From Microthyrium microscopicum (taxonomy: Eukaryota): a DNA stretch of 64,000 bases. The notes under the pieces were generated by a model. The model made no database searches. It was not told the DNA's origin and was given only the letters and a program-made list of their open reading frames with translations. Each line of letters starts with the position of its first letter. The stretch's first letter is position 1. The position numbers and the translations under genes were made by a program. Location: contig MU004235.1 in NCBI GenBank assembly GCA_010405405.1, forward strand, positions 882,538-946,537, read 5' to 3'. Of the stretch, positions 1 through 56,578 are shown piece by piece.

Positions 1-3000
1 TTAAAAAAGAAGATCTTAAAACTTATCTTAGAATGTTTCTACTAATATTTTAAAGTCTTTAATCTAAAGCATTTAGATATCCTTACGCCTTATTATAGTA
101 AATACAACTATGCTATTAACCTTATTCCTAACGCTAAAATTCTAAAACGCTAACCTATATTAATATTATTAAAATAAGCCTTAGTTATTAAATAATATAT
201 TAAGAGTCTACTTTAGCGCGGTTTTACTATAGGTTTAAAATCTTAATATACTATACTTATGCTTTACGTAAGTAAGTTAGGAAGAGGCATCTATATTTAT
301 ATTAATTACTATAAGTTAAATAATATTACTATTAAAAATAGTAACGTCCTATTGCTTATTAGTAAGACGCTTATACGCCTTATAAAGGTAAAGTATTACT
401 CTAAGTTTAACGTTATTACTACCTTTAAATATATTTATATTAAACTTAGAGATAAATATAAGATAGTATTCTTAATATACTATAACTTATTTAAGTTTAA
501 AGTACTACCCTTTAGCCTTATAGAGGGACTAGGGATATTTTAAGTATATATTAATTATGTACTAATATAGTTTTTAGATAATTTTATAACTATTTATTTA
601 GATAATATTCTAGTATTTAGTAAGATACTAAAAGAATATAATACCTATATATATTTAGTACTAGATATATTAGAACGTATAAGCTTATTCCTTAATATTA
701 AGAAGTTAGAGTTCGCTATTTAAGAAGTAAAATACCTTAGTCTAATTATTACTATAGAAGGTATTAAGATAGACTTTTTAAAAGTTAATATAGTAGTTAA
801 CTAGGAATAATTAAGCTATCTTAAAGATATTTAGGCGTTTCTTAGATTTACTAACTTCTACTAACGATTTATCTTTAATTACTTTGCTATAGTAGTACCC
901 TTAATAAATCTTACTTAGAAGAATACTCTAGCTATATTCCCCTAGGACCCTAATAGGCTTAAGGAATAAGCTTTTAAAAAGCTAAAAATAGACTTTACTA
1001 GTATATTAATTCTATAATACTTTAATTATATTAAGGAAACTTAGATAGAGATAGATATATTAAATTAGGCTTATGTTACTATATTATTATAGAAAGATAT
1101 AAATAGTAATCTAAGACTAGTTACCTTCCTCTCTAAAAAGATATTACTAGCAGAATATAATTACGATATCTATAATAAAGAACTACTTACTATCATTCGC
1201 GCCTTTAAGGAGTAGGAACCTAAGTTGTTTAGTACTAAAGATATTATAAAGGTATTCTTAGATTATTAGAATCTTTAAACCTTTATAAAGACTAAGAAGC
1301 TTATACGCCATTAAATGTGCTAGGCTAAATTCCTATTATAATTCTACTTTTTAATTAAATATTATTCTAGTAAAGATAATAGTAAAGCTAATACTTTAAT
1401 CTAAAAATTATAAGACGTACTCTAAAGTAATAAAGACCTATAGGTTAAGTAATAGTACTAACTACTCCTATTTCTATATTAATTTAGTACTAAACAAGCT
1501 ATTAAGCTAGCTATAATCCTTATTAACCTAATTACCTTATCCTTTATATAGATAGCTATACTTACGTTAAATAAGTTAGATATTACTATAGTAGGGGAGT
1601 CTAATTTAGAACTTATTATAAAGAGCTCTTAGAATAAAGCTCTAGCTAGTTTAGATAATTTGCTACTAGTTAATACTAAATTCCTAGATTTTAACCTAGA
1701 GTAGTTTATATAGAAAGTAATAAAAGCGAGTAAGGGAGATAAGTTACTAATTACAATTTAACTAGCAAAGGCATAGAAAGACTACTTCTTACTCTTTAGT
1801 ATACTAAATTAAGATTAAATTAAGTTAATAGATTATAAAGCTCTACTAAATAGTACTATCCTCTATTAATAGAAGCTATTTATACTAATAATGTATTTAC
1901 GAAATAAAGTAATAAAATAAGCGTATTAATATAAAGTTATAAGTTATAAAGGAACTATAATAACCTACTACTACCTTTAACGAGATTATTAGTAGCTAAG
2001 AATATTAAAATATATTAAGAAATATATTAAAGGTTATTACTATATTTTTTTAAAACTAGTACGCTAAAAGAAGTAAGGGCTTCTTTACTTATTCCCTCTA
2101 CTAGATTAGGCTTAGTCTAATATCTCTATAGACTTTACTATCTTACTACTACGCTATACCTACTAGGGTATAGTTTACTAGTATATTATAGTTATTATTA
2201 ATTATTTAACGTAATTATAATAGTTTATTATACTTTTAAGTCTTTTAGTAGAAATGATAGTTATAGTATTTATTAATTAAGTATAGAAGCTATATAGTTA
2301 GCTAGACTCTATCCTTTTAGATTAAGGAACTTAATTTATATCTACCTTCTAGAGTTGCTTATATAAACGTATAGGCGTTATATTAAGATTAAGTACTATA
2401 TAGTATCTAGAGTCTAATAGTATTACTAAAATAACTATTACTACTTTAAAATAGTATCTTAAATCCTTTATTAATTAGGATTAGGATAATTAGGTAGCCC
2501 TATTACTATTCGCTAAATTTATAATAAATTCTACTATAAGTGCTACTACTAGTTTTATACCTTTTAAGGCATAAAATAGTTTTCTACTAAAATTAGGACT
2601 TAAGTCTACTTACTATTTACTACCTAAAGCGTTATACGCTTCTATTATAGCGCGTAAAAAAGTTATTACTACTAATTAAGTATAGAATAGTTAAAAGAAG
2701 CTTTATAAGTTCTTAAAGAAGTAATTAGTATAGGCTTAGGCTTAATAAAAGCTCTACGCTAATAAGCATTAATATTTAGTACTAGATCTCTATCTTAGGA
2801 ACTAGGTACGACTTAACGTTTAAAATTATAATATAACTTACTCTTTAAAAACCCTTAATAGCAAAAACGCTAGTCTCTTTAAGGTATTACGCAAAATTAA
2901 TAAAGTAACTTATAAATTAGATCTTCTTAAATTAATAAAGATATACCTAGTGTTCTATGCCTAGCTACTATATCTAATTAATAATAATATATACTTATTA

Positions 3001-3855
3001 TAAGAATTAAACCTACCCCTAGTAGTTATTAGAAAAAAAGAAAGTAAAGAAGAATAGCTTATTAATGCTATTATTAATAGTAAATAGAATAGTAGAAGTA
3101 AGAATAAGGTACTTAAATATAAGATTAAATAAATAGGATTTTATAACAAAACTTAGTAGCCCTAGAAAGATACTATTAATATACCTAATACTATATTAGA
3201 ATTCTATAGGCTTTATCCTTAGAAGCCTAGTCTATACCCTTCTTAGTCTCTACTAGTAAATAAAGTTAAAGAAAAAGATTATAATACTAATAGACTACCT
3301 ATAGATTAAGATTATATAGTATAAAAAACGTTATATTTATTTATTTTTACTAATAGTATTATACCCCTAGTTTAGTTTTTAATTTATGCTACTAAAGAGA
3401 TTATAGAATACTACAAACTAGCTTAAATAGATATTCTCTTTTTTATTAAATAGATTTAGATAGTACTAAGGTAAATAGATAGCATATTACTATATCCCTT
3501 AATAATAATATATATAAAGAAGTTTTATATTTATATAGACTAGCCTAGCCTAGCCTAGATTAGCTTAGACTAGACTAGAATAGATTAGATTAGAATATAG
3601 CCTATAAAGTCTATTTTAGAAGAAGAGAGTTATATAAGGAATCTTTATAGGTTTAGTATTATAGTATTTAGATACTAAGATCTAATCCTATAGATAAAAT
3701 CTCTTTATCTCATTTAGGGTTAGTATATCTAAGGATATCCCAAGCTCCTACTTCTTTACATCCATAGCTATATCTCTAGATCTCTTCTCTCTATACTTAG
3801 ATCCTACAATACTAGCTACTTTCTGCTTGCCTATCGCGCTCATTAGCTCCTTACA
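1..3855 (+). mobile_element. Ty3/Gypsy chromovirus-type LTR retrotransposon, family A, RIP-inactivated; 5' part lies outside the window
   Basis: De-RIP reading gives RT (YLD[D]ILVFS near 595-620), RNase H (NYDIY[D]KELL near 1158), integrase (about 2100-2600) and a chromodomain (about 3050-3230), in Gypsy order. A polypurine tract at about 3619-3630 precedes a 3' LTR ending ...ccttaca. Colinear with the inverted copy at 33139-40850. Confidence 0.95.
3633..3855 (+). repeat. 3' LTR of Gypsy family A (about 223 bp)
   Basis: Matches the reverse complement of 33139-33362 and 40627-40850; follows a PPT; ends in CA. Confidence 0.92.
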
Positions 3856-6800
3856 ACATAAAACTATATTTCTAACTTACTATAAGTTATATAAATTTAA
3901 AGTTATACTCTTTAGCCTTACTAAAGCTCTAAAAACTTTCTAAGCTTATCTTAACTATATTCTAATTAATTACCTAAATAACTTTATTATAAGCTATATA
4001 AACGATCTATTAGTCTTTAGCAATATTAAAGCTAGCTATATTACCTATACCTATCTAGTCTTAGAAGTAATAAATAAAGTAGGACTATACTTAGATATCT
4101 AGAAGTATAAATTTAATACTTAATAAGTTAAATACCTTAGCTTAATTATTACTACTAAAGATATTAAGATAGACCTAAAAAAGGTTTAAAGTATAGTTAA
4201 CTAGTAACATTCCTTTTTAGTAAAAAATATTTAAGCTTTCCTTAGCTTTACTAATTTTTATTACTAATTTATTCTTAAATATTTAAAGACTATAATACTA
4301 CTAATAGTACTTATAAAGAAAGATGCTATAGTAATCTTTCTATAAAACTCTAATAAGCTAGAGGAACGTGCCTTTAAGAAGCTAAAATAAGACTTTACGT
4401 TTACTAAGATATTACGTTACTTTAACTATATAAAAGAAATATAGTTAGAGATAGACGCCTTAAATTAGATTTATATTATAGTCCTCTCTTAAAAAGGTAA
4501 TAATAAAAAGCTTTATTTAGTTATATACCTCTTAAAGAAGATAATCCTAGTAAAATATAATTATAATATTTATAATAAAGAGCTCTTAGTTATTATCTAT
4601 ATATTTAAGAAGTAAGAACTAGAGCTATTTAGCTCTATTAACTCTATTTAAGTATTTTTTAATTACTATAACCTTTAGACGTTTATAATAATAAAACGTC
4701 TCTCTTAATAATAAGCTAGATAAGTTAAATTTCTCTCCTAGTTTTACTTTAAGATAAAGTACTACCTAAGTATAGCTAATAGAAAGGTAGATACCCTTAC
4801 CTATTAATTATAAGATATTCTATAAAGTAATAACGACTCTTACGTCTCTTAATAAATTTAACCTTTACTATTCTTATATTAATTTAATATAGAGTACGTA
4901 GTAAAGCTAGCTATATTACTTATTAAATCTACCTACCTCTTAATACTATACTTAGCTATTATTACTTAAGATAAGTTAGATATTTCTAATCCTATAGGTA
5001 AGCTACTTAATCCTATAGAAGAGTTTTTTAGTAATAATAAGGTGCCTAAGGATAAGCTACTTAATCTCTTAAGAGATAATCTATTCCTAGATTTTAATAG
5101 TAACTAATTCCTATAAAATATTATAGACGTAATAAAGTATAATAAAATAATAATTACTATTTACTACGCTAAAACTAATTACTAGCTTTTCTTACCTTTT
5201 AATACTCTAGAATAAGAGTAGATTAAGCTTAGAGACTACATAGTAGCTACTAATAAGATAATCCTCTATTATAACTAAATCTTTATCTCTTAAAGTAAGC
5301 TTTAGCGTCGTACTATATAGAGTACATATAGCTATAAAGCTATAAGCTATAATAAAGTAATAATAACTTACTACTATCTATAAGAAGATTACTAATAGCC
5401 TAAGATATTATAAGATATTAAAAGCTTTATTAAAGGCTATAAATATATATTTACTAAACTTATTTATTAAAAGAAGTAAGGCTTTCTACGTTAATTTCCT
5501 CTTCTTAAGTACGTATAGTCTAATATCTCTATTAACTTTACTATCTTACTACCTTACTATTTATACTAAAGTATAATCTATTAATATATTATAATAGTTA
5601 TTAACTAATATATATAGACTTAATATTTTATCCTACTACTAAATCTATTTATAAACTTAATAGTATTAGCCTTTATTAACTATATATAGAAGCTTATTAG
5701 CTAGCTATTAATAATTCTTTTAGACTATAGTAACTAATTTATCTCTACGTTTTAAAAGCACTTATATAAACGCGTAGGTATAATACTCTATCTTAGTATA
5801 GTATTTTACTCTAAAACTAATAGTATAATAGAAATCTTAGTTACTATACTTAAGTAGTTCTTACGTACGTTTATTAATTAGGATTAAGATAACTAAATAG
5901 CCTTTCTACTCTTTACTAAATTTATAGTTAATTCTACTATAAATACTATTATAGGAGTTATACTTTTTAAAGCTTAAAATAAATTTAATCTTTATTTAGG
6001 CTTTAAGTCCTTATATTACCTCTTAAAATCTATAAATGCCTCTATAGCTACTAATAAAGAAGCTATTAATATAAATATAATATAGAAAGGTTATACTAAG
6101 ATATATAATTACTTAATAGAGTAATTAATCTAGGTATAAGCTTAGTAAGTAGAATACGCTAACTACTATTACTACGTAGCTCTAGACTTATTATTAGGTA
6201 ACTAGGTTTACTTAAATATATAGAACTACCCTATTTTACGTTTTTTAAAGACTTTAGATAATAAGAATATAGGTCTTTTCTATATAATTAAGAAAATTAA
6301 TATTATTATCTATAAACTTAATCTCCTCTCTTCTATAAAGATATATAATATCTTTTACGCTTAGGTCTTTTATTATATTATAAATAACGCTAAGCTACTT
6401 AAGTATACTAATTTATTACTAGTAGTTATTAGAGAAACTATAAATAATAATAAATAGTTTATTAATACTATTATTAATAGCTACTTTACTAGTTAATATA
6501 AGAAGCTATAATATAAGATTAAGTATACTAATTATAATAAAGCTAAATAGTATAATTAGATAGCTACTAAGAATATATTAGAGCTTATTACTAAGTTTTA
6601 TACTTAGTACCTTAGTAAGCTAGGCCTATATTCTACCTAGATACTACTAATACTAAAGCTTACTAGCAATAATATTAATTATAACTCTAATAGCATTCTT
6701 ATTAATTAAAAGAAGTAAATAATTATACTATTAATTCCTTTATACTAATAGGATTACTAATTACTAGACTACTAAGACTTAAGAATTAGAGTATTCTAAG

Positions 6801-7281
6801 GACATCTTAGGGTTTATTAATACTTCTTAATAGTTGCCTTAGTAGGCTAAAGGTTAAGATACTCTAAATAACTAGTAAGGTTAATATTATACTATAAAAG
6901 GATCAAAATATTATTTATTACTAAAAAGTTTGTTAGATAGGACTAGACTAGACTAGACTAGACTAAACTAGACTAGATTAGAATAGAATAGATTAGGAAA
7001 GTAGTTATAATTAATAATCTATAGCTTAGAGAGCTATACTAAAAAGGGGGGTTATATAATAATTCCTCTTTATAGGCTTTATAGTAGTATTATAAGAGAG
7101 ATCTTATTATAAGATTATATACTAGACTTAAGGAGGTTAGCGTGCCTAAGAATCTACTAAGCAAACTTACATTCCTTATAGATTTATAGCTTTTCTAGAT
7201 CTTCTTCTCTCTCTCTCCTATTTATAGATTCTAGAATATAATCTAATTATCTGCTTGCTCTAAGTCCCGTAGCTCGTTATA
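3856..7281 (+). mobile_element. Ty3/Gypsy LTR retrotransposon, family B (3' half), RIP-inactivated, interrupted within RT by the family A copy
   Basis: Resumes mid-RT right after the A LTR (KT.FLT.Y.LY.FKV..F.LT, then Y[M][D]DLLVFS near 3996), followed by RNase H, integrase and chromodomain, PPT aaaaagggggg at 7041-7051 and a distinct LTR. Confidence 0.92.
7055..7281 (+). repeat. 3' LTR of Gypsy family B (about 227 bp)
   Basis: Follows the PPT; termini tataat...gttata are consistent with RIP-mutated tgtgac...gtcaca. No partner LTR in the window, so the bounds are inferred. Confidence 0.7.
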
Positions 7282-9699
7282 CTAAAAACTTCTATTTCTT
7301 TAGCTATAACGTCTTTTAATACTTTTTTACTACTAATTTATATCCCTAAAAGTAATTTCTAGCTTTTAATATAATTATATAAGCTTTAAGACGTTAATAT
7401 AGAGTATTTTAGACTTCTCTATTTATATTATATAAGGTAAAGTTACGTTTTAGTAGGCCTATATTTCTTAGCTTATATACTAAACTATTATATATACTAT
7501 TTAGCTTATTAATTAGTAGAACTACTAACGCTAGAGGCGTAAGTATTTTTTATAAATACTAATTATTTTATAAAACGTATCTATACTTAAATATCTAAGA
7601 GGCTAGCCTACTATTATAGAGCACTATATTTATAAGAATATAAAAAAAGTAAAAAAATAGTATAAGATTAGTACTAGGATATTTAGTACTATTATATAAT
7701 AATTTTATAGGGCTAAATTATATATAAGTTTGTCTTTCTTTATTAAATTAAGTATAACTAATATAATTAAGTAATAAAATTATAATAAAGAAGGTTTAGT
7801 AAAGTAAGATTTTTTAGTATTAAGTAAGAAAGAGACTATAACTTTAATCTAGCTATTATATCTAAGTAGCGCTAAGCTAGTTTATATAGTAAGTAGTATA
7901 TATATTTAAGTCTTACTAAGTTTCTCTATAGCTATATTAAGAGCTAGGTTAATAAGGAAATAATTTTTTTTTAGCTATTTTATAGAAGAAGGAAAAAATA
8001 TTATCTATAATTATCTAAAAAATTTTACGTAACTTAAAATTATATAGAATTCATAGTAATTATTTAAGCTTATACTATATAGTAGTTTTATACCTACGTA
8101 GTCTTATTATAATAATTTAGTAGTAAGTATTACTTTAGAAATAATATTCTACTACTATAGAGTAAGCCTTCTTAGCTAAAAGGCTCTCTCTATTCCTAAT
8201 TCTATACTCTTTAGTATAGTATACTTTTATATATATAAAATTAATTATAAAGCCTACTATACTATTCCTCTTTAGGGACTATTTAAGAAAATATATATAG
8301 TAAAATACTTTATAGTAAAATACTTAATATTTTATTTATAGCGCGCGCTTTATAGATAACTTATTAAAATATATTAAGGTATCTACCTTTTATAAGGAGA
8401 TACCTTATATAAGAGATTAAGATATTATTTTACTTATTATATAAGGAATTAAGATATTATTTTACTTATTATATATATTTATTTTAGTAAAATAAAAAGA
8501 ATAACTTATAGTTACTTTTTAAAGTACTATTTAATAATTACTTAGCTTTAAGGTAGCTATAACTAGTAGAGATTATTAGTCTAACCTATTTTTATAACTT
8601 AGTCTAGTTTTCTAAATATATAGGTATTAACTAGCTAGAATAGCTATAAAGCTTTTTTATTACTAAGTAGTATTATTTAATACTACGTATTACTTAGATA
8701 AGTAAAGCTTTTTATAATAAAGCTTATTAAGTAGTATATTTATACTAATACTTAGTAAAATTACTATAAAGGTATCTTAGTAGATCTTAATTAATATTAA
8801 GACCCTTTTAGGATAATAATATTATAATAATTTTTATAACTATTTATACTTTAGTATTTATTATTAAAGATATCTTATTATATTTTATTAGTTACCCTTC
8901 TTTAATACGCTTTCTAGAAAAAATTAAAATAATAAGGTATTTTTTATATTAATTTTTTTTTTTAAAAAAAAGTCTTAACGTCTTTAACGTTAATACGTTC
9001 TATATTAATATATTATATTGCGCTAGGTTAATCTATAGCAATATAGGTAGTTTTTAACTATTAATTAATTAGTATTTTAGTTATACTAAATACTATAACT
9101 ACTTATTACTTAGAGATATTATATATAAGATATAAATAATATTACTATCCTTTATTAGTTATAGCCTACTATAGACTACTATCTATAATAGGCTTATTAA
9201 TAACGATTGATTACCTCCTTATTTAGAGATTTTATCTTATAAATAGGCTTACTAGTTATAATAGAGTAATTCTAATATACTTTTTAAGTTTAATTTTATT
9301 CTTTCTTTACCTATTTTACTAACGATACTCTCTTAAAGTTATAGTTCTATATAACTTATTATGCTTATATAGTAGTTATACTCTAGTCTAGGGTATAGTA
9401 ATTAGGTTATTTTATATATTAGAAGAGCTTATATTTTATAATATAGAGGAAAGTTAGTTAAAAACTAGTATATTATTTAAATACTATTTAAACTAAATAT
9501 TAGTAAGTTAGTATTTAGAAGGAAGGTTACCTAAAAACTAAAGCTAACTACTACAATTTTCTATTATAATTTTTATTTAAACTAGGCTCTTTAAAGATTT
9601 TCTAATATTATTATAGCCTTATTATTATTATATATAGAGATAATTCTATACGTTACTCTATATCCTTAAAAAGTATAAGCACTATATTAAGAATAATAT

Positions 9700-12315
9700 A
9701 AATAGTATAAGTAAGTTATAGAATTATTAATCTATATAAACTATAGGTTCTTAATTTTATTAAGAGTATTCCTATCTATAAAAAGTAATTCTACCTTAAT
9801 CTAGTATTAATAAGTATATCTAATATATTAGCCCTAATATATAATAAAGGTTATACTCTTTACTTTAGTATAAAGTATATATCTTTTTTAAGAAGATTAA
9901 GTTTATTAGGTAAAGACTTTAAGTAGCCTTATTAAGATAATTTAACTATATTATTTATTAGNNNNNNNNNNTAGAAATCTTAGTATATATTATTAATCTA
10001 AAGTAGTAAATATTATTATTAAAAGAATATAGATATAGAAGCCTCTAAAAAAATAGAGAAACTTTATTACTTAGTATATAATTAGTAGTATATTATAAGA
10101 AAGGTAAAGATATACTTTCTATTAATATATACTAGATAATATAAATAGATATTAATAAATATTATTATTAGTTTATTAATATATAGAGGTAGGCTAGTTA
10201 ATTACTTCTAAATATCTTTATTTAAGTAGCGTTCTCTTTAAGTTAAAAAGTATTAGTTCTTAGTAAGTAGAAGTAATAATTATAGTATATATCTAAATAC
10301 TAAATAATTAAATAGTAAAAGAGTAGCTTAGAGTTAGCTAATATTTAAAAATATATTACTAGCTATAGTAGTTACTAACTAGTTATTATGCTTATTTATA
10401 AAGAAATATTATAAAATCTAAGTAGTTAAACTTTTAACTTATAAAGCTTATATATTTATCTACTTTGTTACTTAGTAATAATTAATAACTTTAAGAATAA
10501 ACTAAGGATTTATTTAGGATATTTAGAAGTATAGAATAATAAGCTTATATTTTATATATTATAACTAATAGAAATAAAAATATAAAAAGTATATTATAGG
10601 CTATTCTTTACTAGATTTAAGCTTATAATATACGCTTTAGGTAAGTCCTAAATTTACTTTATTATCTACTAATCTACTTTAAGATAGTAGAGATTACTTT
10701 TAGTATCCTTATTTATTTTAGTAATTATTTTTTAATATATTTACTTTTACTTATTATTACTACGCTTAAAATAGTAAAGTAAATATACTACTTTGCCTAT
10801 TCTAAATACTTATTATATATTTAGTTCTTTTATTTTTTTAAGAAGTCTTCTATTTATAGAGATAGTATTATATTAATAAATTAAAGCTAATTATAAACTT
10901 AGATATATATTATAAATATTAATTAGAGTATAGCTAATAGTACTTCTTTTTAGAAAGATAGTTATATTTAATATAATAGTATATCTCTACTAAAGACTTT
11001 ATTATATATATACTAATAAAGTACTAGATCCTTACTTACTATATTATTAATTAAAGTAGTACTTTATATAGAAAAAATATATATTAGTAATAAAATAACT
11101 AATAGGTAAGAATTTATCTACTTCTTTCTACTATTAAAAAGAATACTAACTTAATATTAAACTAATAAAAATTCTAATTTAGGTAAGTATTAGCTCTTTT
11201 AAAGCTATATTAGACCTTAATTATTCTTTTAATTTATTTAAGAGGTAGTTAAGGTCTAATATTAAAAGATAAAAACTTAAAAATACTAGAGGTAGTATAT
11301 ATAAGTTAAATTTAACTCTTTTTTAATATAGTATATCTTTTAGTAGTATATTATTTAAAATAAAGAATAAATTAAAATTATAAGTTAATATAAGTATAAC
11401 TTTTTCTAAGTCTTACTCTATAATTAAAGTTACTACTTTATAAGACATTTTAATATAGAAGTATTTAGCTAAAAAGTCTTTAAAATAAATAAAGCTTATA
11501 TATTCTTAGCTACTCTCTTAGTTTACTAAGAAGTAGTTAAGAATTTATAAGCTTTATTTCGTTCTATATATTATCTTAATAATATTTACTCTAAGGGTTA
11601 TAGATTTAATTAAGTTCTTAATATAATACTAATAACTAAATATAAATTAATATAATATAATATTAAATTAAAGAATCTTATCTAGAGCTTTTCTATAAAG
11701 ATCTTTAGCGCTATATAAATAGTAAAAAGAAATTAAATATTTTTAGAATATATTTAAAAGTAGAGAAGATAAAAATATATATAGATTATAATAGTAATAT
11801 AATAGGCTTATTAATTAAGTTTAGTAACTTAAATTTTTTAAAAGATAAAGATATATTAATATTATTAATACGCTTTTAAAGTAGACTATAAAGATTATAT
11901 AGGTAAATAAAAAGAATTCTTAAAAGTATAAGTAAGACTAAGATAAGCTTTATTTAGATAGATAGTACTAAATAGAAAGAGCATTACTAACTTATTTATA
12001 TTTTAAATAACGCTAAAAAAATTAATATATCTTTAAGAGCTTTAAAAAAGATAAATAAAGTAAAGATTAAGAAAGAATAAAGAGAGAATAAGTAATTAGT
12101 TTAAGAGGTTAACTTTAATAAAGGTTATCCTCTTTATGAGTATAATAATAAGAAGTTATTAAAGTACTATTATAAATTTAATAATAAAGATATAAATAAC
12201 TATATTATATATAAAGAAAAAAATAGAGTTACTTTTAATTAGAAAGTCTTAAAAGTATATAGTCTAGATATTAAAGAACTTATTACTTTTACCTTTAAGT
12301 ACCTAGTAGCCTAAT
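9700..12315 (+). pseudogene. RIP-destroyed, intron-containing gene resembling a Crypton/Ndc10-type tyrosine recombinase
   Basis: Manual de-RIP gives motifs in the expected order: DLRSL.IYLLCH (about 10435), EIKTQK (10570), intron gtaagt...taag at 10641-10683, ARNSK..MPLCPF..L.MYL (10785), LEYSQQ (10925), ISTKDFITHI (10985), HW...D...RIYL (11085). The catalytic residues are not securely recovered. Confidence 0.4.
9962..9971. other. Assembly gap (10 N)
   Basis: Run of N in the sequence. Confidence 1.
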
Positions 12316-13489
12316 AATTAACTTTATTAACTCTTCTTAAGTTATTTCTTACTAACTAATATTATATCTATTTTAAAAAAGACTATAACTCCTTTATAAA
12401 TTAGTAGCCTAAGAAAGTTTATTAAAATTAGAGTTAGAGCTTAATAACTATTATTATATATTCTAGTAAGTAGCTAATAGTATTAGATAGAAATATAACT
12501 AATTTTTTATAAAATTATATTAATACTTAAACCCTAACTTCCTTAACTTCTAGATTTATAGTTTAATATAGCTTTTAATTAATTTAATTTTTAGTTAATA
12601 ATTCTAGTTCTAGTAGTATTTATAGCAATATTATATAAATTCCTTAAGCTTATTTCTTAACTATTTTATCTTTATATTATAGTTTTCTATATTATATTTT
12701 ATAACTTCTACTTAATATATTATATTAATTATTATGCTTACTAACGTTTATTTAGGTTTAACTTATAAGTTAATAAACTACTTAAGAATTCTAAGGATAT
12801 TAGTTTAGTAAAATAAAGATAAAGTATAATAGTTTAATAAGCTAGTTACTTATTATTTTATAGTATATACGTAGCCCTATATAAGGATATATTATTAGAT
12901 TAGTTAGCCTTATTTTAGAAAGGGCTAACGCCCTTACTAAGATTTAGTCCTATTTAAGTTTAAAGTCTATATATTAAAGGGCATAATACTTAAGGCTTAA
13001 AAGAAGATTACTTAGTTACCTTTAAAGAATAATTTTAAGAAACTAGAATTTATTATAGTCTATTTAAGTTATAAGTAGCTTATAGTTTAGTAAGCCTAGT
13101 ATAGGATCTATTTACTAAATATAGCTTAATCTTAGTTATAGCATTACTACTTAGAAGAAACTTTAATTAATACTAACTTACTTTAGTACTAAAGAGTAGC
13201 TAAAGTAATAAAAGCCTATAGTATACCCTATTTATTATAGTTTACTTATTATTAGTCCTATTAGAAATCTCTTATTTTATACTAAATATAGTATATAGTA
13301 CTTAATAATAAAGATTTATAGCGCCTAATCTTTTAGTAAAGTCTTTAAAATAAATAAGTAAAAATCTTTAATTTAAAGAAAGGATCTATATCTATAAAGC
13401 TAAAATAATAAATATCTAAAATTATAGTAAGTATATAGAATATAATAAGTATATATTAATACTACTAAGAAATAAAAAAACTTAATAAA

Positions 13490-15235
13490 TATTACCTTTT
13501 CTTTTTATAAACCTTTTTAGAAACTAGTATTAATTTCTTTACTTTCTTTTACCTAGGTTTAGTTACTAAAGGATTATTTTTAGAAATATAAGGTAATAAT
13601 ATAATACTAGTATTTACTCTTACATATATTACTATTTAAGTTTTACTAGGTAGTATTATAGTAGATAGTTTTCTTTTATAATAATTAACCTTTTTTAAAC
13701 CTAAGGATATTTATCTTAAAGGACTTTTAGCTAGGTTATTAAATACTTTTTATATATCTTAAATATTCTTCTTTATAACCTAGAGTTATTAATTTAGTAT
13801 AAATATATTAGTAGGATTCTCTTTTAAGTACTCTTAGTATTCTTTTAGTATTATCTTAAAGAATAAATTATTATCTTAGAAGTTAGCGTTCTAGTTACTA
13901 CTTTTATTTAAGAAATAAACTAAATTAAGGCTAATAGAGTTAGTATTCTTAGAAGAGTAGTTACTTTTATCCTTATCTTTATTATTTAAACTATTATTAT
14001 TATTAAAATTATTATTATTATTAAAATTATTAATATTATTAATATTATTAATCTTTTTATTATTAATGAGGTTAATTTAGGGAGTAACTAGCGACTTTAT
14101 TTTAAGTATTAATAGTAGAGCTACGGTTTTAGTTTAGTAACCCTTTATCTCTTTCTTAATAGAAGTATCTAGATCTATCTTAATAGAAACCTTTTTCTTT
14201 TTATTAACTTTCTTTAATATAGAAGTACCTAAGCTAGATTTAGTTATTATTTTAATTAGTAATTTTTTAGCTAGAGGTATTAGTAATATTAGTTATAGAA
14301 TAAAGTTATCTACTAATAGTAAGTTACTTACTAGGTATATATAGACTTTTAATAGTAATTTCTTAGTTCTATGCTAACTAGAATATTTATATATATTACG
14401 TATAGACTTATAGTCTACTATATTTTAACTAATATTAATAGGTTTATTCTTTATATTAATCTATATAGCTAAACTTTATTATCTCTTATTAATTTAGTCT
14501 TACGTAATCTAGATACCTTTCTTTAGCTAAATATATTCCTAAATAAACTAATCTCTTATATTAATATAATATAGCTACTTATCTTTATTAAATACGTAAT
14601 AGTTATAAACTATATAGAATTAACCTAGTAAATATATTAATACTTTTATATATACTTTATAAAAAGTACTTTCTACTAATCTAAAGAGTTTTAATAAATA
14701 TTAGAATACTATCTTTATTAATATAGTTATAAGTATTAATAGTAATATAGGCCTACTACTCTATAATAATAGGGTTAGCTCTAGCTTTATTACCTAGCTT
14801 CTTAAAGATAGATGTCTATTAATTATCTTAAGTAAGTACTATAGCGTTTACTATTATTACTTTTACTTATATCTTTATTAAAGTATAGTTAGCTATACTA
14901 GTTAAATATTAAGCTTAGTAACTATAATTCTAGTATACTTTACTTAGTTTTTTATTTAAAAGTTTAAAAGATATAAGATCTTTTACTATTCTTGCCTTAT
15001 AGCTATTAATATACCTTAGTCTAAAAGAGTTTAGAAACTTAGTAAAATTAATAACCTTAGCCCTAAGTAGAACTATAAAGCTAGTTAATAGAGCTTAACT
15101 ATTTAATAGAGCTTAAGTAGTAAAAATAGTAAGCAGAGTACTATATTATATATATATATTACCTATTAGTTTTATATAATTAATAGCTAGTTCTTTTATT
15201 AAGGATTTAGTATAGTATTTATTAACTTAAGCTAT
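13490..15235 (-). pseudogene. RIP-destroyed ORF of unknown function with an acidic low-complexity tract, directly downstream of the IS3EU-like transposase
   Basis: Long minus-strand frames interrupted only by TAA/TAG; aat-rich run at 13980-14070 de-RIPs to a D-rich tract; probable short intron near 14625-14655. Bounds approximate. Confidence 0.5.
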
Positions 15236-15448
15236 AATAAGAGTTTTATAAAGATTTTAAGAATTATTAAAATTATTAAATATCTAAATTTATTATAAGT
15301 AAATACTATATAGGTTTTATTTACTTAATATAAGCTATTAACTTAGAAAAGGTAATTAAGATAATATATTAAGAAAAAATATAATAAACTAAAATATATA
15401 TAAATAAAGAACTAATTAAAATATAAAATAGGCTCTATATATAAACTA

Positions 15449-17152
15449 CTACTTATCTTGTTTACTTTTATAGGTCTCTAAGTCCTTATTACTCTCCTAG
15501 TTTAAGTTACCTTTTATCTTTATCTTTAGTATATCTCTAGCTATAATAGCTACATAAGTTAAATTAGTATCTACTTATTCTTATCTTTTAATAAATATAC
15601 TTATTAGACTTAATATTAGTTATACTTTAGAGTTAATATATTTCTATAAAGCTACTCTTAATTATAAATACTCTTCTCTAAAAAGGATATCTTTATTAAG
15701 CTTATTCTTATACTAATTAGAGCAATTAAAGCTAAATCTTTACTAAAGAAGTATACTATAAATAAAGTTTAGTATCTCTTATAGTAGGTAACTATTTTTA
15801 TTCTAAGCTTTAACTTATTTACGTTTACTATAAATATAAGTAAAATTAGTGTAAAATATGTAATTCTTATAGCTAAAGAGTAAATAAAAATATAGAAACT
15901 AAGGCTTATTAGTAACTATACTAGGTTAGTTTTTTTAAATATAAATATAATAGCTATTCTAAGTATCTACGTAAGATTAAATCTCTTAAAGAATAATTAA
16001 TAAATATATTACGTAGATTATAATCTAATTAGTAAGACTATCTTTACTAAAGGCTTCTTCTATTTAAAATGCTTATAAATATATCTATTTTCTAATTAGT
16101 AGTTATTTCTAAAGTCTTAAAGTTAACTTACTCTTTATTTAAATATAGCTTCTTTAGATAACTATCTCTACTATGCTTTAATTTACTAATTAAATATACT
16201 TATTCTATAGATATAGGTCTAGTTAAACTAGATTTAAGGGTATATTCTTTATAAAAATTTATATTAAGTAGTAGCTAATATAACTATTTCTTTATCCTAA
16301 TTAGAATAAATAAAGTATAGTATTATCTCTTCTTACTTAAGGTAATTAAGATATTAATAAAGTACGCTAATACTTATTAAGTTTAAGATACTAGTATATA
16401 TTTAAAGTATATTTCTAAGTACTATTAGTATATTTAAAAAACTAATTAAAGGATACCTAAGTATATTATTACCTTAAGTACCTATTAATATAGGTATAAA
16501 TCTTAATACTATATAGTTTAAGCTTATTATACTTATTAATAAACTATATAAAATTTAGTCTTAGAATAATATACTCTCTTTAATAGCAAAATAAATTTAT
16601 TAAGTATAGTATATAATCTTCTAAATTAAGCTTAAGGCTAATTACTATAAGGCGCTTTTAGGAAATAATATAGCCTTAAATATAGAAGTAGTATACTAGT
16701 AAATAATAATCTAAACTATTAATATTATCTCTTACTTATTCTAGTTAAATAATTTTATAATCTTAGATATATTATACTTTAGCTTATTATAGTATATTAT
16801 TTATATAGTATTAATAAAGCCTAAGACTATAGTAATAATAATAAAGTATTTATCTTTTAAAAAAGTAGCTCTTTAACTATAGAGCTATTAATATTTTATA
16901 GTCTATTACTTCTTTCTTATAGTAAAAGAATATAATTTTATCTTCTAAATTACTAGTTAAAGGTATAAGTTTATTCTAGTAGGCTTTTATAACTTTTTAA
17001 GATTTAAATATAGTTTATAAGGTACGTTTACTAACTAAGACGTTATATTTTTAATATAATATTATAATAATTTACTAATATATTTCCTCTTTTTTTATTA
17101 TAATTTATAGTTCTTCTTAGTATAGATCTAGATTAATTAAAAAAGGTACTAT
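15449..17152 (-). pseudogene. IS3EU-type DDE transposase (Clr5-like N-terminus plus integrase core), RIP-inactivated
   Basis: De-RIP reading: N-terminal IDLDPYREEL...VSVSKRTL; EYIVPGPNFIWSIDGHDKLKPYGIEIY.CIDGYSR at about 16578-16472; FIRSDRGKET near 16310-16285. Confidence 0.8.
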
Positions 17153-18527
17153 ATTAATAACGTAATAAAAGAAGAAAAAAAGATAGTAGTAAGGTAAAAG
17201 AAGAAAGAAAGATAATAACTAAACTAATATAGATAGATTTATATATCTTATATATATAATATCTATATAGAAAATTAACTTATTACTAACTACTCTTCTA
17301 TACTAAAGCCTTAAAGTCTATAATAACCTTAAAATATAAACCTTAGAGTTTATAATAAACCCTAAACTATTTATATTTATATTTTATTACTTATAAATTA
17401 TTATTTAAGATACTTAAGCCCTTTTCTTATACTACCCTAAAGAATAAAATATCTTAAAATAGGGCTATTTAGTAATTATAATTATAATTTATATTTTTTA
17501 AACTCTAGTTTAGGGTTTTTAGATTTTTAGTTTTTGGTTTTCCTTAATGTTGCTAGGTAGGCCATAATGCGCTTCTATACGCCACTATATCCAGCCTTGC
17601 AATAATAGCGTGCCAGCCTCGTAACCTCACAAGCTAGAATATCAAGTATGAATTTATTGTTTTAAGTAAGTAATTCATTTTTTGGATATATTATGAGCAC
17701 ACAACATAATCTACTCATACTTGCTGAAAACTAAGATCCAATAGGAAATATCATAGTTGGTGGGAGACGAGGACCTCGAGTCCATCGAAACCACTCCTCT
17801 AACTTATTCCAAACTCCAAAGTCTCAAAGGGGGTTCCTTCAATTACTGTATACATCTCTACGCTACTACATAACGTTACCTGTTAGAACATCTCTCCTCA
17901 AAATAATCAAACCTGTCCGCCCCATCGAGTGCTAAACAAAAACATACACATAAAGAGCCGCCAATCTCAAACGCTAACCCACCAGTCATGGCAAACCGCC
18001 CGGGTATCTCATATGTAATCATACCATGTCGCATGCGATCAAAAAAATGGGTGGAAAACTTGATAATACAAAAAATCAGGCGAATATCCCAGTGAGCTGG
18101 GTCAATGCAAATCATGACGTGTGATATCATTTGCTCTCGTTCTGATCATCGTAATTTCGTTAATAAAGAGACAGCCCATATGCCAGTTCCCGGCCCATAA
18201 ACAAGCTTCAAGGTCCCAGCAATGGTGGACGCTTTAAGTACGTGTTGGGCTAACAAAACATACACTAAAGCGGTGGGGAGTAGAGGAGTTGTGGAAAGTA
18301 AAGTGATAGTGGTGGGTGATGTGAGGAGGGAAGGAGGGGAAACATGACATGATGAGATGATGGTGAAATGCCGAAAAGGGGTGGTGCATGGTGTTTGAGG
18401 ATGATAGAGGTCCAACGCCGCTCGTCAGTACAATGAAAATCTGTCCTCGTTGAAGGACACAAGAAGTTCCTTAGCCCGACAGTGGTGATAAGTTTACTTC
18501 TTAACCATCTAGACAAGATGTATACAG

Positions 18528-28520: not shown

Positions 28521-28803
28521 TGGGAATTGCGGCGTAGTGGAAGATGGCGCACAGCGGTTTGCGATTGCGATTGAGGATAGAGGAATTGGAGGGGTTGATA
28601 GAGTATGAGAGATTAGAGCAGTGACGAAATAGTTGACTGGGGATACACAGGGGATCAAAGTTATATTATAAACGGTGGGGATGTGGTCTCCCGTGTCAGA
28701 GGTTGTGGATATTCTGATCAATTTAAACAGTAGAAGCCGTTGGAGAAATGCATTGTTAGCGAAGGGTCTTCGACATGTATGGCTAGAGCTCAGTACTACT
28801 GTA

Positions 28804-28880
28804 CCTCTGCTGCGCGTTCTGTGGTTATACAGGGCAAAATCTGGCCTGTTGATTCAGCTGCAGATCTAGGATCCTGATTA
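28804..28880 (+). repeat. Left terminal inverted repeat of the Tc1-like element
   Basis: cctctgctgcgcgttctgtgg...; the outer 56 bp are identical to the right TIR, near identity runs to about 77 bp, and weaker similarity continues to about 28925. Confidence 0.95.
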
Positions 28881-55931: not shown

Positions 55932-56007
55932 CAATCAGATCCTAGATCTGTAGCTGAATCAACAGGCCAGATTTTGCCCTGTATAACCACAGAACGCGCA
56001 GCAGAGG
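55932..56007 (-). repeat. Right terminal inverted repeat of the Tc1-like element
   Basis: Reverse complement of 28804-28880; followed by TA. Confidence 0.95.
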
Positions 56008-56578
56008 TACTTGAAATGCAGGCAAGCAGTGGTAGTGGCAGGTTGCATGGTCCAAAAGTCTCGACTTCCCTTCCTTTCCCTACTAATCCTGTGGAGAAGC
56101 AGTGGCAGAGCAAGAGATGGTCATGCTAATGGTCAAATGGTCTTGATAATTCAGCCTTGAATCAAATAGTTGCATTGGGAACCCCTCTTGAGTCTGCCTT
56201 TCTGCAAGCGCATCAAGACTAGAGCAGCTTTAATGCTTTGAATACTCTGCACGTAAAAGGCAACTCTCGTGGTCCGCATCGTCGTTTATAGCCAATTGGG
56301 AAGTCACTGGGGGTTGGTGATTTCAGGAGAGATGGATTAATATTGAACTGAACTGAAATCTAAAGGGGTCGCGAGATACAGCTGATGGAATAAATAGAGG
56401 CACGGAGTAGAGAAAAGAAGGGATGGCTGCTGCCACTGCGGAGCTGTGCTGGGAGCGTTTGTCCACATGTCGCTTAAGCCTTCCTATTTGGGGTCCAGCG
56501 AACTCAACACCAAAGCGCTCCAGATATTGCTATCGGTCTGTCTAGTCCACAACCATGATCTGATGATTAGTGTCGCCA

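Follow-up and report, generated by a model that had tools for sequence, protein, structure and literature searches.

Transposons of the IS3EU (GingerRoot) type, Starships and telomere-linked helicase (TLH) subtelomeres are the closest described systems to the DNA considered here. IS3EU elements with extra genes (Styx/REP9 of Zymoseptoria and the TET+ families of rust fungi) and the swapping of cargo and captains among Starships are already known. The present text concerns a stretch of 64,000 nucleotides from the 37-Mb genome of the fungus Microthyrium microscopicum (contig C6, positions 882,538-946,537; hereafter the window), the left part of which belongs to one dead IS3EU DNA transposon with a net length of ~11.1 kb, mutated by repeat-induced point mutation (RIP). 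Five families of such elements reside in this genome, and with a probability of about 0.7 their interior was homogenised by ectopic exchange, with ends and enzyme remaining family-specific. The near-identical interior suggests that DNA was exchanged recently among mobile elements that are separate in other respects.

IS3EU elements are defined by TA..TA termini, terminal inverted repeats (TIRs) of over 30 bp and a target-site duplication (TSD) of usually 6 bp (PMC10045372), and the rust families end in TAYGG..CCRTA. The window element shares with IS3EU/GingerRoot, including the rust TET+ families (PMC10045372, PMC12730594), the termini, the TIR length, the 6-bp TSD, the ordered DDE core motifs and extra sequence beside the transposase, and it starts with TAYGG. 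Unlike the rust TET+ families, in which the second encoded protein is an alpha-kinase, neither TET/JBP nor alpha-kinase was detected here; one family here makes 5-bp TSDs, and three begin with TATGA. The pairs compared in PMC12730594 shared a gene that was at most ~80% identical, from which passive gene transfer between families was inferred, whereas here an apparently non-coding interior of ~6 kb is near-identical across five co-resident families.

Styx/REP9 (PMC8232023, PMC10853768) is likewise a large IS3EU-related element of an ascomycete, with a 6-bp TSD, co-opted extra sequence and RIP-killed copies, and its TIR groups were taken as marking independent transposition. Styx is 7.9 kb long and active, with four transcribed open reading frames (ORFs), whereas the elements here are 11.1-11.7 kb and all dead. 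Its TIR groups separate by species and the available descriptions report no exchange of interiors between co-resident families, which sets it apart by description; DUF3716, a domain of Styx genes, gave no match in the read-through Pfam frames, a search of low sensitivity. Starships (bioRxiv 10.1101/2023.11.22.568313, PMC12134995) likewise have near-identical interiors moved by distantly related enzymes, but they have a tyrosine-recombinase captain and adaptive genes, whereas in the present 11-kb DDE/TIR element useful cargo was not identified; no recombinase match was obtained in the window element, which has a DDE transposase, TIRs and a TSD instead. TLH subtelomeres (PMC1635262) likewise are chromosome-end repeats with tandem arrays and a telomere-ward helicase relic, features that recur in the subtelomeric unit described below, whereas the window element lies away from the telomeres and lacks a helicase, and the available part of that paper does not describe a TIR-bearing interior that dispersed transposons have in common with the repeat. 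In the literature searched, which included neither Repbase nor most subscription papers, no description was found of TIR families within one genome that have a near-identical multi-kb interior in common both with each other and with a subtelomeric repeat.

Five families and their common interior

A total of 15 complete elements was found in the genome, and in every one of them the TIRs and TSDs of the two ends match. By TIR and transposase arm they comprised six copies of family s1, five of s2, two of s3, one of s5 and one of W, the window element being the only full-length copy of its family. Ten uninterrupted elements measured 11.2-11.7 kb. The TSD was 6 bp in eight elements (one with a C-to-T change), 5 bp in six (including all five s2 copies) and 7 bp in one. 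Whole 11-kb units were inserted by cut-and-paste and killed by RIP, and their interior is decoupled from their ends. The parts of the window element concerned are the following, negative positions lying left of the window.

-8,892 to -8,101 (C6:873,645-874,436): left arm, 792 bp, with a TACGG TIR directly after the TSD CGCCAC
7,282-13,151: shared interior, which runs ~600 bp on into the left arm and is near-identical in five families
15,724-17,302, minus strand: IS3EU-type DDE transposase, broken by RIP, compared with the published alignment
16,546 (WxxD), 16,489 (IDxxSR), 16,308 (RxDxGxE) and 16,191 (NQRIExxW), minus strand: starts of the transposase motifs in the RIP-aware motif chain
17,500-17,579, minus strand: right TIR, ~60-80 bp, beginning TA(T/C)(A/G)G, of the same type as ~600-bp miniature inverted-repeat transposable elements (MITEs) elsewhere in the genome
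17,580-17,585, plus strand: TSD CGCCAC, with a copy on both sides of the element

Each family has its own TIR and its own 4.4-4.9-kb transposase arm, and a ~6-kb interior is common to all five. Transversions were a fair measure of divergence because RIP makes only transitions. The transposase core (~560 bp) was 68-74% identical between families with 14-22% transversions, and the interior differed between families by 0.09-0.30% transversions (measured at positions 450-1,400 and 2,100-4,600 of s3 copy L005, the repeat-variable 1,400-2,100 being excluded). Window positions 7,282-17,600 were used as a query; among the 39 of 65 candidates that were scored, 11 copies matched 5,680 or more of the first 5,884 bases with 87-90% identity, and these matches continue through the N gap of the assembly. 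The right 4.4 kb had no close copy among the 32/32 candidates scored, short matches at the TIR and the interior junction excepted; its best other matches (66-81%) were colinear inside the same interior-bearing copies. The transposase search (18/18 candidates scored) returned these 15 elements and one weak outlier. The interior was present behind all five s2 arms and in every complete element, and no look-alikes were found in the other genomes compared.

The window copy and s1 have the interior in common to 13,151; with s3 the common part ends at 12,974, and with s2 it ends at 12,377 but resumes in a patch at 12,719-12,791. Breakpoints were staggered in the coordinates of copy L006, at ~181, 240 and 295 on the left and ~6,360, 6,550 and 6,730 on the right, and no TIR, long terminal repeat (LTR) or TSD was seen at them. 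The breakpoints grade into diverged homologous flanks that were still ~75% alike, and in s2 a homologous but diverged stretch remained, within which one patch had been converted. Multi-site transversion tracts, which RIP cannot produce, crossed family lines: s2 copy L011 grouped with s5 at five sites (4,639-4,691), s2 copies L007, L008 and L010 grouped with telomeric copies at three sites (3,093-3,157), W agreed with s5 in a 5-bp insertion as well as at four sites, and the two s3 copies had different haplotypes, L004 with s1 and L005 with s2 and s5.

Repeated ectopic recombination or gene conversion would explain the homogenised interior, probably through break repair from a non-cognate copy, with the tracts ending in the diverged homologous flanks. 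The specificity between TIR and transposase is established. Only recombinants with a left TIR matching their transposase arm could move, so ends and enzyme would stay family-specific and the passive middle would be pooled. Since the breakpoints were common within a family, each composite probably arose once and then transposed; the mosaics within families would then reflect later conversion.

The aligned transposase relics fit the rows for IS3EU in the alignment of Kojima and Bao (PMC10045372) position by position when C-to-T and G-to-A changes were allowed. The four-motif IS3EU chain, in the published order and spacing, occurred exactly once in 11/11 elements scanned, in 0/40 shuffles, and also in three further family members. 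TA was present at the start and end of 15/15 complete elements, and the TIR of the window element (~60-80 bp) starts TACGGAAGCGCAT; its left end is TACGG and its right end the RIP form thereof, s5 has TACGG, and s1-s3 begin with the variant TATGA. Given the motif chain, the TA..TA termini and the 6-bp TSD, the element files as IS3EU, an assignment that draws on the termini and the RIP-aware motif chain. An intron-like insert of ~50 nt lies at ~16,420-16,471 within the catalytic core of the window family, and families s1-s3 are devoid of it. A weak sixth IS3EU-like transposase relic (36%) was located at C11:869,592-870,155, where the motif chain was absent and no interior match lay nearby.

The window element and its contents

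RIP was uniform across 7,282-17,500, with GC 0.19, TpA/ApT 1.6 and (CA+TG)/(AC+GT) 0.04, against 0.47, 0.65 and 1.27 in the right flank, a sharp switch to gene-like DNA. The left TIR lies outside the window at C6:873,645 (window -8,892), beside the same 6-bp TSD as at the right end. These results agree with a sequence-only reading of the window, which had described uniform RIP over more than 10 kb, a transposase at the right end reading inward (the minus-strand relic from ~17,300 to 15,720), no left TIR within the window, and as one option a single large IS3EU-type element ending left of base 1. The upstream search that it had proposed for the inverted terminus found it 8.9 kb left of base 1. 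Its right end at 17,566 had to be moved to 17,579, and atgcgc, which it took for the flank, belongs to the TIR, the true TSD being CGCCAC. Two of its other options failed: a nest of several DNA elements, and a misjoin at the 9,962 gap, which is 40 bp in 5/5 copies checked, with colinear sequence on both sides. The remaining features of the left part of the window are listed here.

1-7,281, plus strand: distal part of an LTR insertion of 15.4 kb, two nested LTR retroelements (one earlier called Gypsy B, the second inside it)
9,962-9,971: assembly gap, an N run standing for the 40 bp just mentioned
11,643-12,326, plus strand: RIP-broken frame, earlier read as a recombinase-like gene, holding tracts that match the intact host gene of protein P0001
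~11,855-11,895 (projected from copy L009), other frame, upstream of the next tract: host-gene tract of ~41 bp, P0001 gene
12,115-12,284, within the plus-strand frame: host-gene tract of 170 bp, matching the P0001 gene
13,500-14,460, minus strand: second arm frame, earlier read as an acidic ORF, with an N/D-rich repeat and no detectable conservation with other families

The 15.4-kb LTR insertion splits the left arm from the rest of the element and has the 5-bp TSD CTAAA on both sides; other copies extend ~800 bp leftward beyond the position matching 7,282. The window element landed between host genes, was itself entered by the nested pair of LTR elements at a point 0.8 kb inside its left end, and was mutated by RIP. 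Its insertion site is 363 bp upstream of a host ORF of 977 codons, and the motifs of the neighbouring ORFs at the right mark them as kinases. The W arm has no second copy in the assembly and yet is fully RIPed, which suggests that the family once had sibling copies, since lost.

W and s2 TIRs also flank MITEs of ~550-620 bp. The window TIR pattern (17,556-17,579) had 28 matches genome-wide and none in a reversed control, many of them paired as ~600-bp, little-mutated MITEs with 6-bp TSDs, and a 100-bp TIR-TIR mini element of the window TIR type was located on C7. A 17-kb element on C7 with W-type TIRs was rejected as a further family member, being a MITE swollen by LTR insertions. Elsewhere in the window, inverted repeats of 73 bp (28,801-28,873 and 55,938-56,010, 99% complementary) flank a second RIP block of 27 kb, which is another TIR element swollen by LTR insertions.

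No recognisable cargo gene was found in the interior. ORF mapping with fixed stops was uninformative because RIP is saturated. Pfam gave nothing at cut-off in 12/12 stop-masked frames of the L006 interior, with one sub-threshold match to DUF2812 (E 0.06). Even the least-mutated copy had no conspicuous frame in the left 4.7 kb of its interior, and a DNA search with that copy revealed no further host donor. A profile search of 1.84 billion proteins with the plus-strand frame returned one match, P0001, the product of an intact gene in this genome for which Pfam gave no family. The 170-bp tract differed from the P0001 gene by 56 changes in the RIP direction, two opposite transitions and four transversions, without gaps, and ~210 bp of the interior in total was probably copied from the host gene. 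P0002, a homolog of P0001, has the same cysteine motif that the 41-bp tract overlaps, so capture from the host gene into the element is the likelier direction on this comparison. No TLH protein match was found in the element. Host DNA methyltransferases were rejected as cargo, since they matched the telomere-side end of a subtelomeric unit on C14 and 29 aa at the tip of C11 and not the element.

The sequence-only reading had thus seen the acidic ORF rightly, as a low-stop, N/D-rich minus frame at ~14,460-13,500, but its recombinase-like gene (frame ~11,640-12,330) matched the host protein only, and its multi-gene cargo is reduced to two short host-gene fragments besides the transposase and the second frame. 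Of its minus-strand relic at 12,500-13,330 the GTAAGT stands, on the minus strand at 13,181, and of its minus frame left of 7,635 the cut by the LTR element at 7,281; neither showed a clear frame, and their coding status was not upheld. It had also asked whether the segments have copy distributions and termini of their own: interior and transposase arm were indeed distributed differently, but the interior had no termini of its own. Short (60-120 bp) low-complexity matches to window positions ~13,970-14,070 and 12,140-12,220 recurred at the same few AT-rich loci (C14:1,118 kb, C10:1,688 kb, C6:2,474 kb and C3:2,872 kb), several of them near contig ends, and homology was not confirmed by transition-blind seeds at the one locus tested.

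Subtelomeric repeats and the origin of the interior

A tract of about 4.7 kb from the interior is also part of a ~14.7-kb repeat that has no transposase arm and is located at the ends of contigs (C11 at both ends, C14, C16, C6 and C4; partial on C3, C12 and C20; one internal on C4). At contig ends the interior tract is mostly directed toward the end, and telomere repeats were present at 2/13 regions examined. The unit has tandem arrays and, distal to the shared tract, a telomere-ward relic of a RecQ-type helicase. Its chain of RecQ-type helicase motifs was found in 3/3 units and 1/12 shuffles and not in the window element, and Pfam gave no family for six frames of the telomeric unit. Three features of the window element lie in or beside the part shared with this repeat.

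7,282-11,400: part of the interior also present in the TLH-like subtelomeric repeat, which has no transposase arm; no clear reading frame
11,207-11,262: palindrome 1, 22-bp arms (transition-blind) and a 12-nt loop, also in the subtelomeric unit
11,487-11,559: palindrome 2, a 73-bp near-perfect hairpin just past the end of the telomere-shared part

Within the telomeric unit, a 48-bp direct repeat flanks the shared tract, and an s1-type TIR remnant (86% over 58 bp) lies exactly at its start. Telomeric copies formed their own clade, at ~0.8% transversions from the transposon copies. Both palindromes are at the right border of the telomere-shared tract. Palindrome 1 was present in 5/5 copies checked and the window and in 0/15 shuffles; palindrome 2 folded at -23.3 kcal/mol (z -8.4, 0/200 shuffles), and a third hairpin, cut off-register (z -1.6), was not counted. 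The two palindromes might, speculatively, be break sites. As side observations, the telomere-side end of the TLH unit carries at C14:1,137,950-1,140,025 (L114/L121) a host C5 DNA-methyltransferase gene copy that is almost full-length and was killed by RIP, 48% identical over 693 aa to the intact gene at C3:734 kb (710 aa), and at C12:1-7,217 (L126) the proximal part of the subtelomeric unit is repeated in tandem three times, in copies of ~2.9 kb with one sharp proximal boundary in common.

An s1-type-TIR copy may have inserted upstream of a telomere-linked helicase gene and then lost its arm; the armless copy would have spread with the subtelomeric repeat and later returned short tracts to the transposons. 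Seeding of the TLH unit by an s1-type copy is slightly favoured over the reverse direction. The reverse would be that the 4.7-kb tract was native upstream of the TLH unit, and that the left end of an IS3EU element landed beside it and mobilised it as cargo together with an IS3EU arm, after which it spread to the other families. The tract does resemble the helicase-associated repeats of Magnaporthe (PMC1635262) in being non-coding by the tests run and in having tandem repeats and palindromes, palindrome 1 recurs in the telomeric unit, and the telomeric copies seem more diverse, at 0.38% against 0.1-0.3% in the transposon copies, although one wrongly grouped s1 fragment raises the former value. 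The telomeric unit, however, carries the TIR remnant together with element positions ~194-290, old IS3EU sequence diverged between families, and the helicase and the 470 bp proximal to the tract are absent from every element; this origin is accordingly rated as rather unlikely.

Near-identity across divergent hosts would also be expected if the interior were a young mobile element or targeted insert of its own, nested independently in each family near the left TIR, and the interior does occur outside IS3EU elements. Yet from family to family its breakpoints lie 60-370 bp apart and pass gradually into diverged but homologous DNA, none of the end structures of an insertion (TIR, LTR or TSD) was seen at them, no free-standing copy was found among the 33/33 and 32/32 candidates scored, and no mobilising enzyme was found, which makes such an insert very improbable. 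Functional multi-gene cargo including a recombinase, spread across the families by selection, would account for the interior in all 15 complete elements and for the coding-like signal of one plus-strand frame, and RIP could conceal its genes, as Pfam missed the transposase as well. This is improbable in view of the left 4.7 kb with no standout frame in the least-mutated copy, the empty Pfam result at cut-off in 12/12 frames, the single protein match, which is a host-gene fragment, and the lack of any match to host DNA methyltransferases or the TLH protein.

Several points weigh against one IS3EU element with an exchanged interior. Pfam gave no family for the stop-masked transposase alignment of 12 members or for nine stop-masked arm frames, a homolog search with the transposase core found none among 479 candidates, the rva_4 family search of the genome had 0 candidates, and a PDB profile search with stop-masked translations gave nothing beyond proteasome matches (E 0.12); these blanks are due to RIP, and the label thus stands without a database match. 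No copy of any family was found with its own pre-exchange interior or without the interior, so donor and order are unrooted. The averages of the telomeric group are approximate, since it includes C27, which behaves as an s1 fragment. Nothing connects the palindromes causally to breaks, the exchange mechanism is inferred from one RIP-saturated genome, and the direction from transposon to telomeric repeat is tentative, as the non-coding, tandem-repeat-rich interior resembles helicase-associated repeats. Ectopic exchange among the five families is preferred all the same. Its fuller form, in which the families keep an exchangeable common interior that is renewed by the repair of breaks arising at palindromes and has a connection with the helicase repeats of the telomeres, is tentative and stands somewhat below even odds.

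Meaning for transposon families

The biological weight of the locus is limited, all copies being dead and no useful cargo gene having been found. For annotation, libraries built on whole-element identity, by which transposon families are defined, would either lump the five families together or divide each of them into two. The elements present a route for passenger DNA between transposase lineages, with divergence close to zero and the conversion tracts still visible; passive transfer of this kind was inferred in the TET/JBP study (PMC12730594), where the pairs were at most ~80% identical. The elements also tie dispersed transposons to subtelomeric helicase repeats. If the fuller form of the exchange is true, it would be a eukaryotic TIR-transposon counterpart of the module swapping in Starships or composite transposons; captures by one family, such as the host-gene fragment, could spread to all, and even single-copy families would be exposed to RIP.

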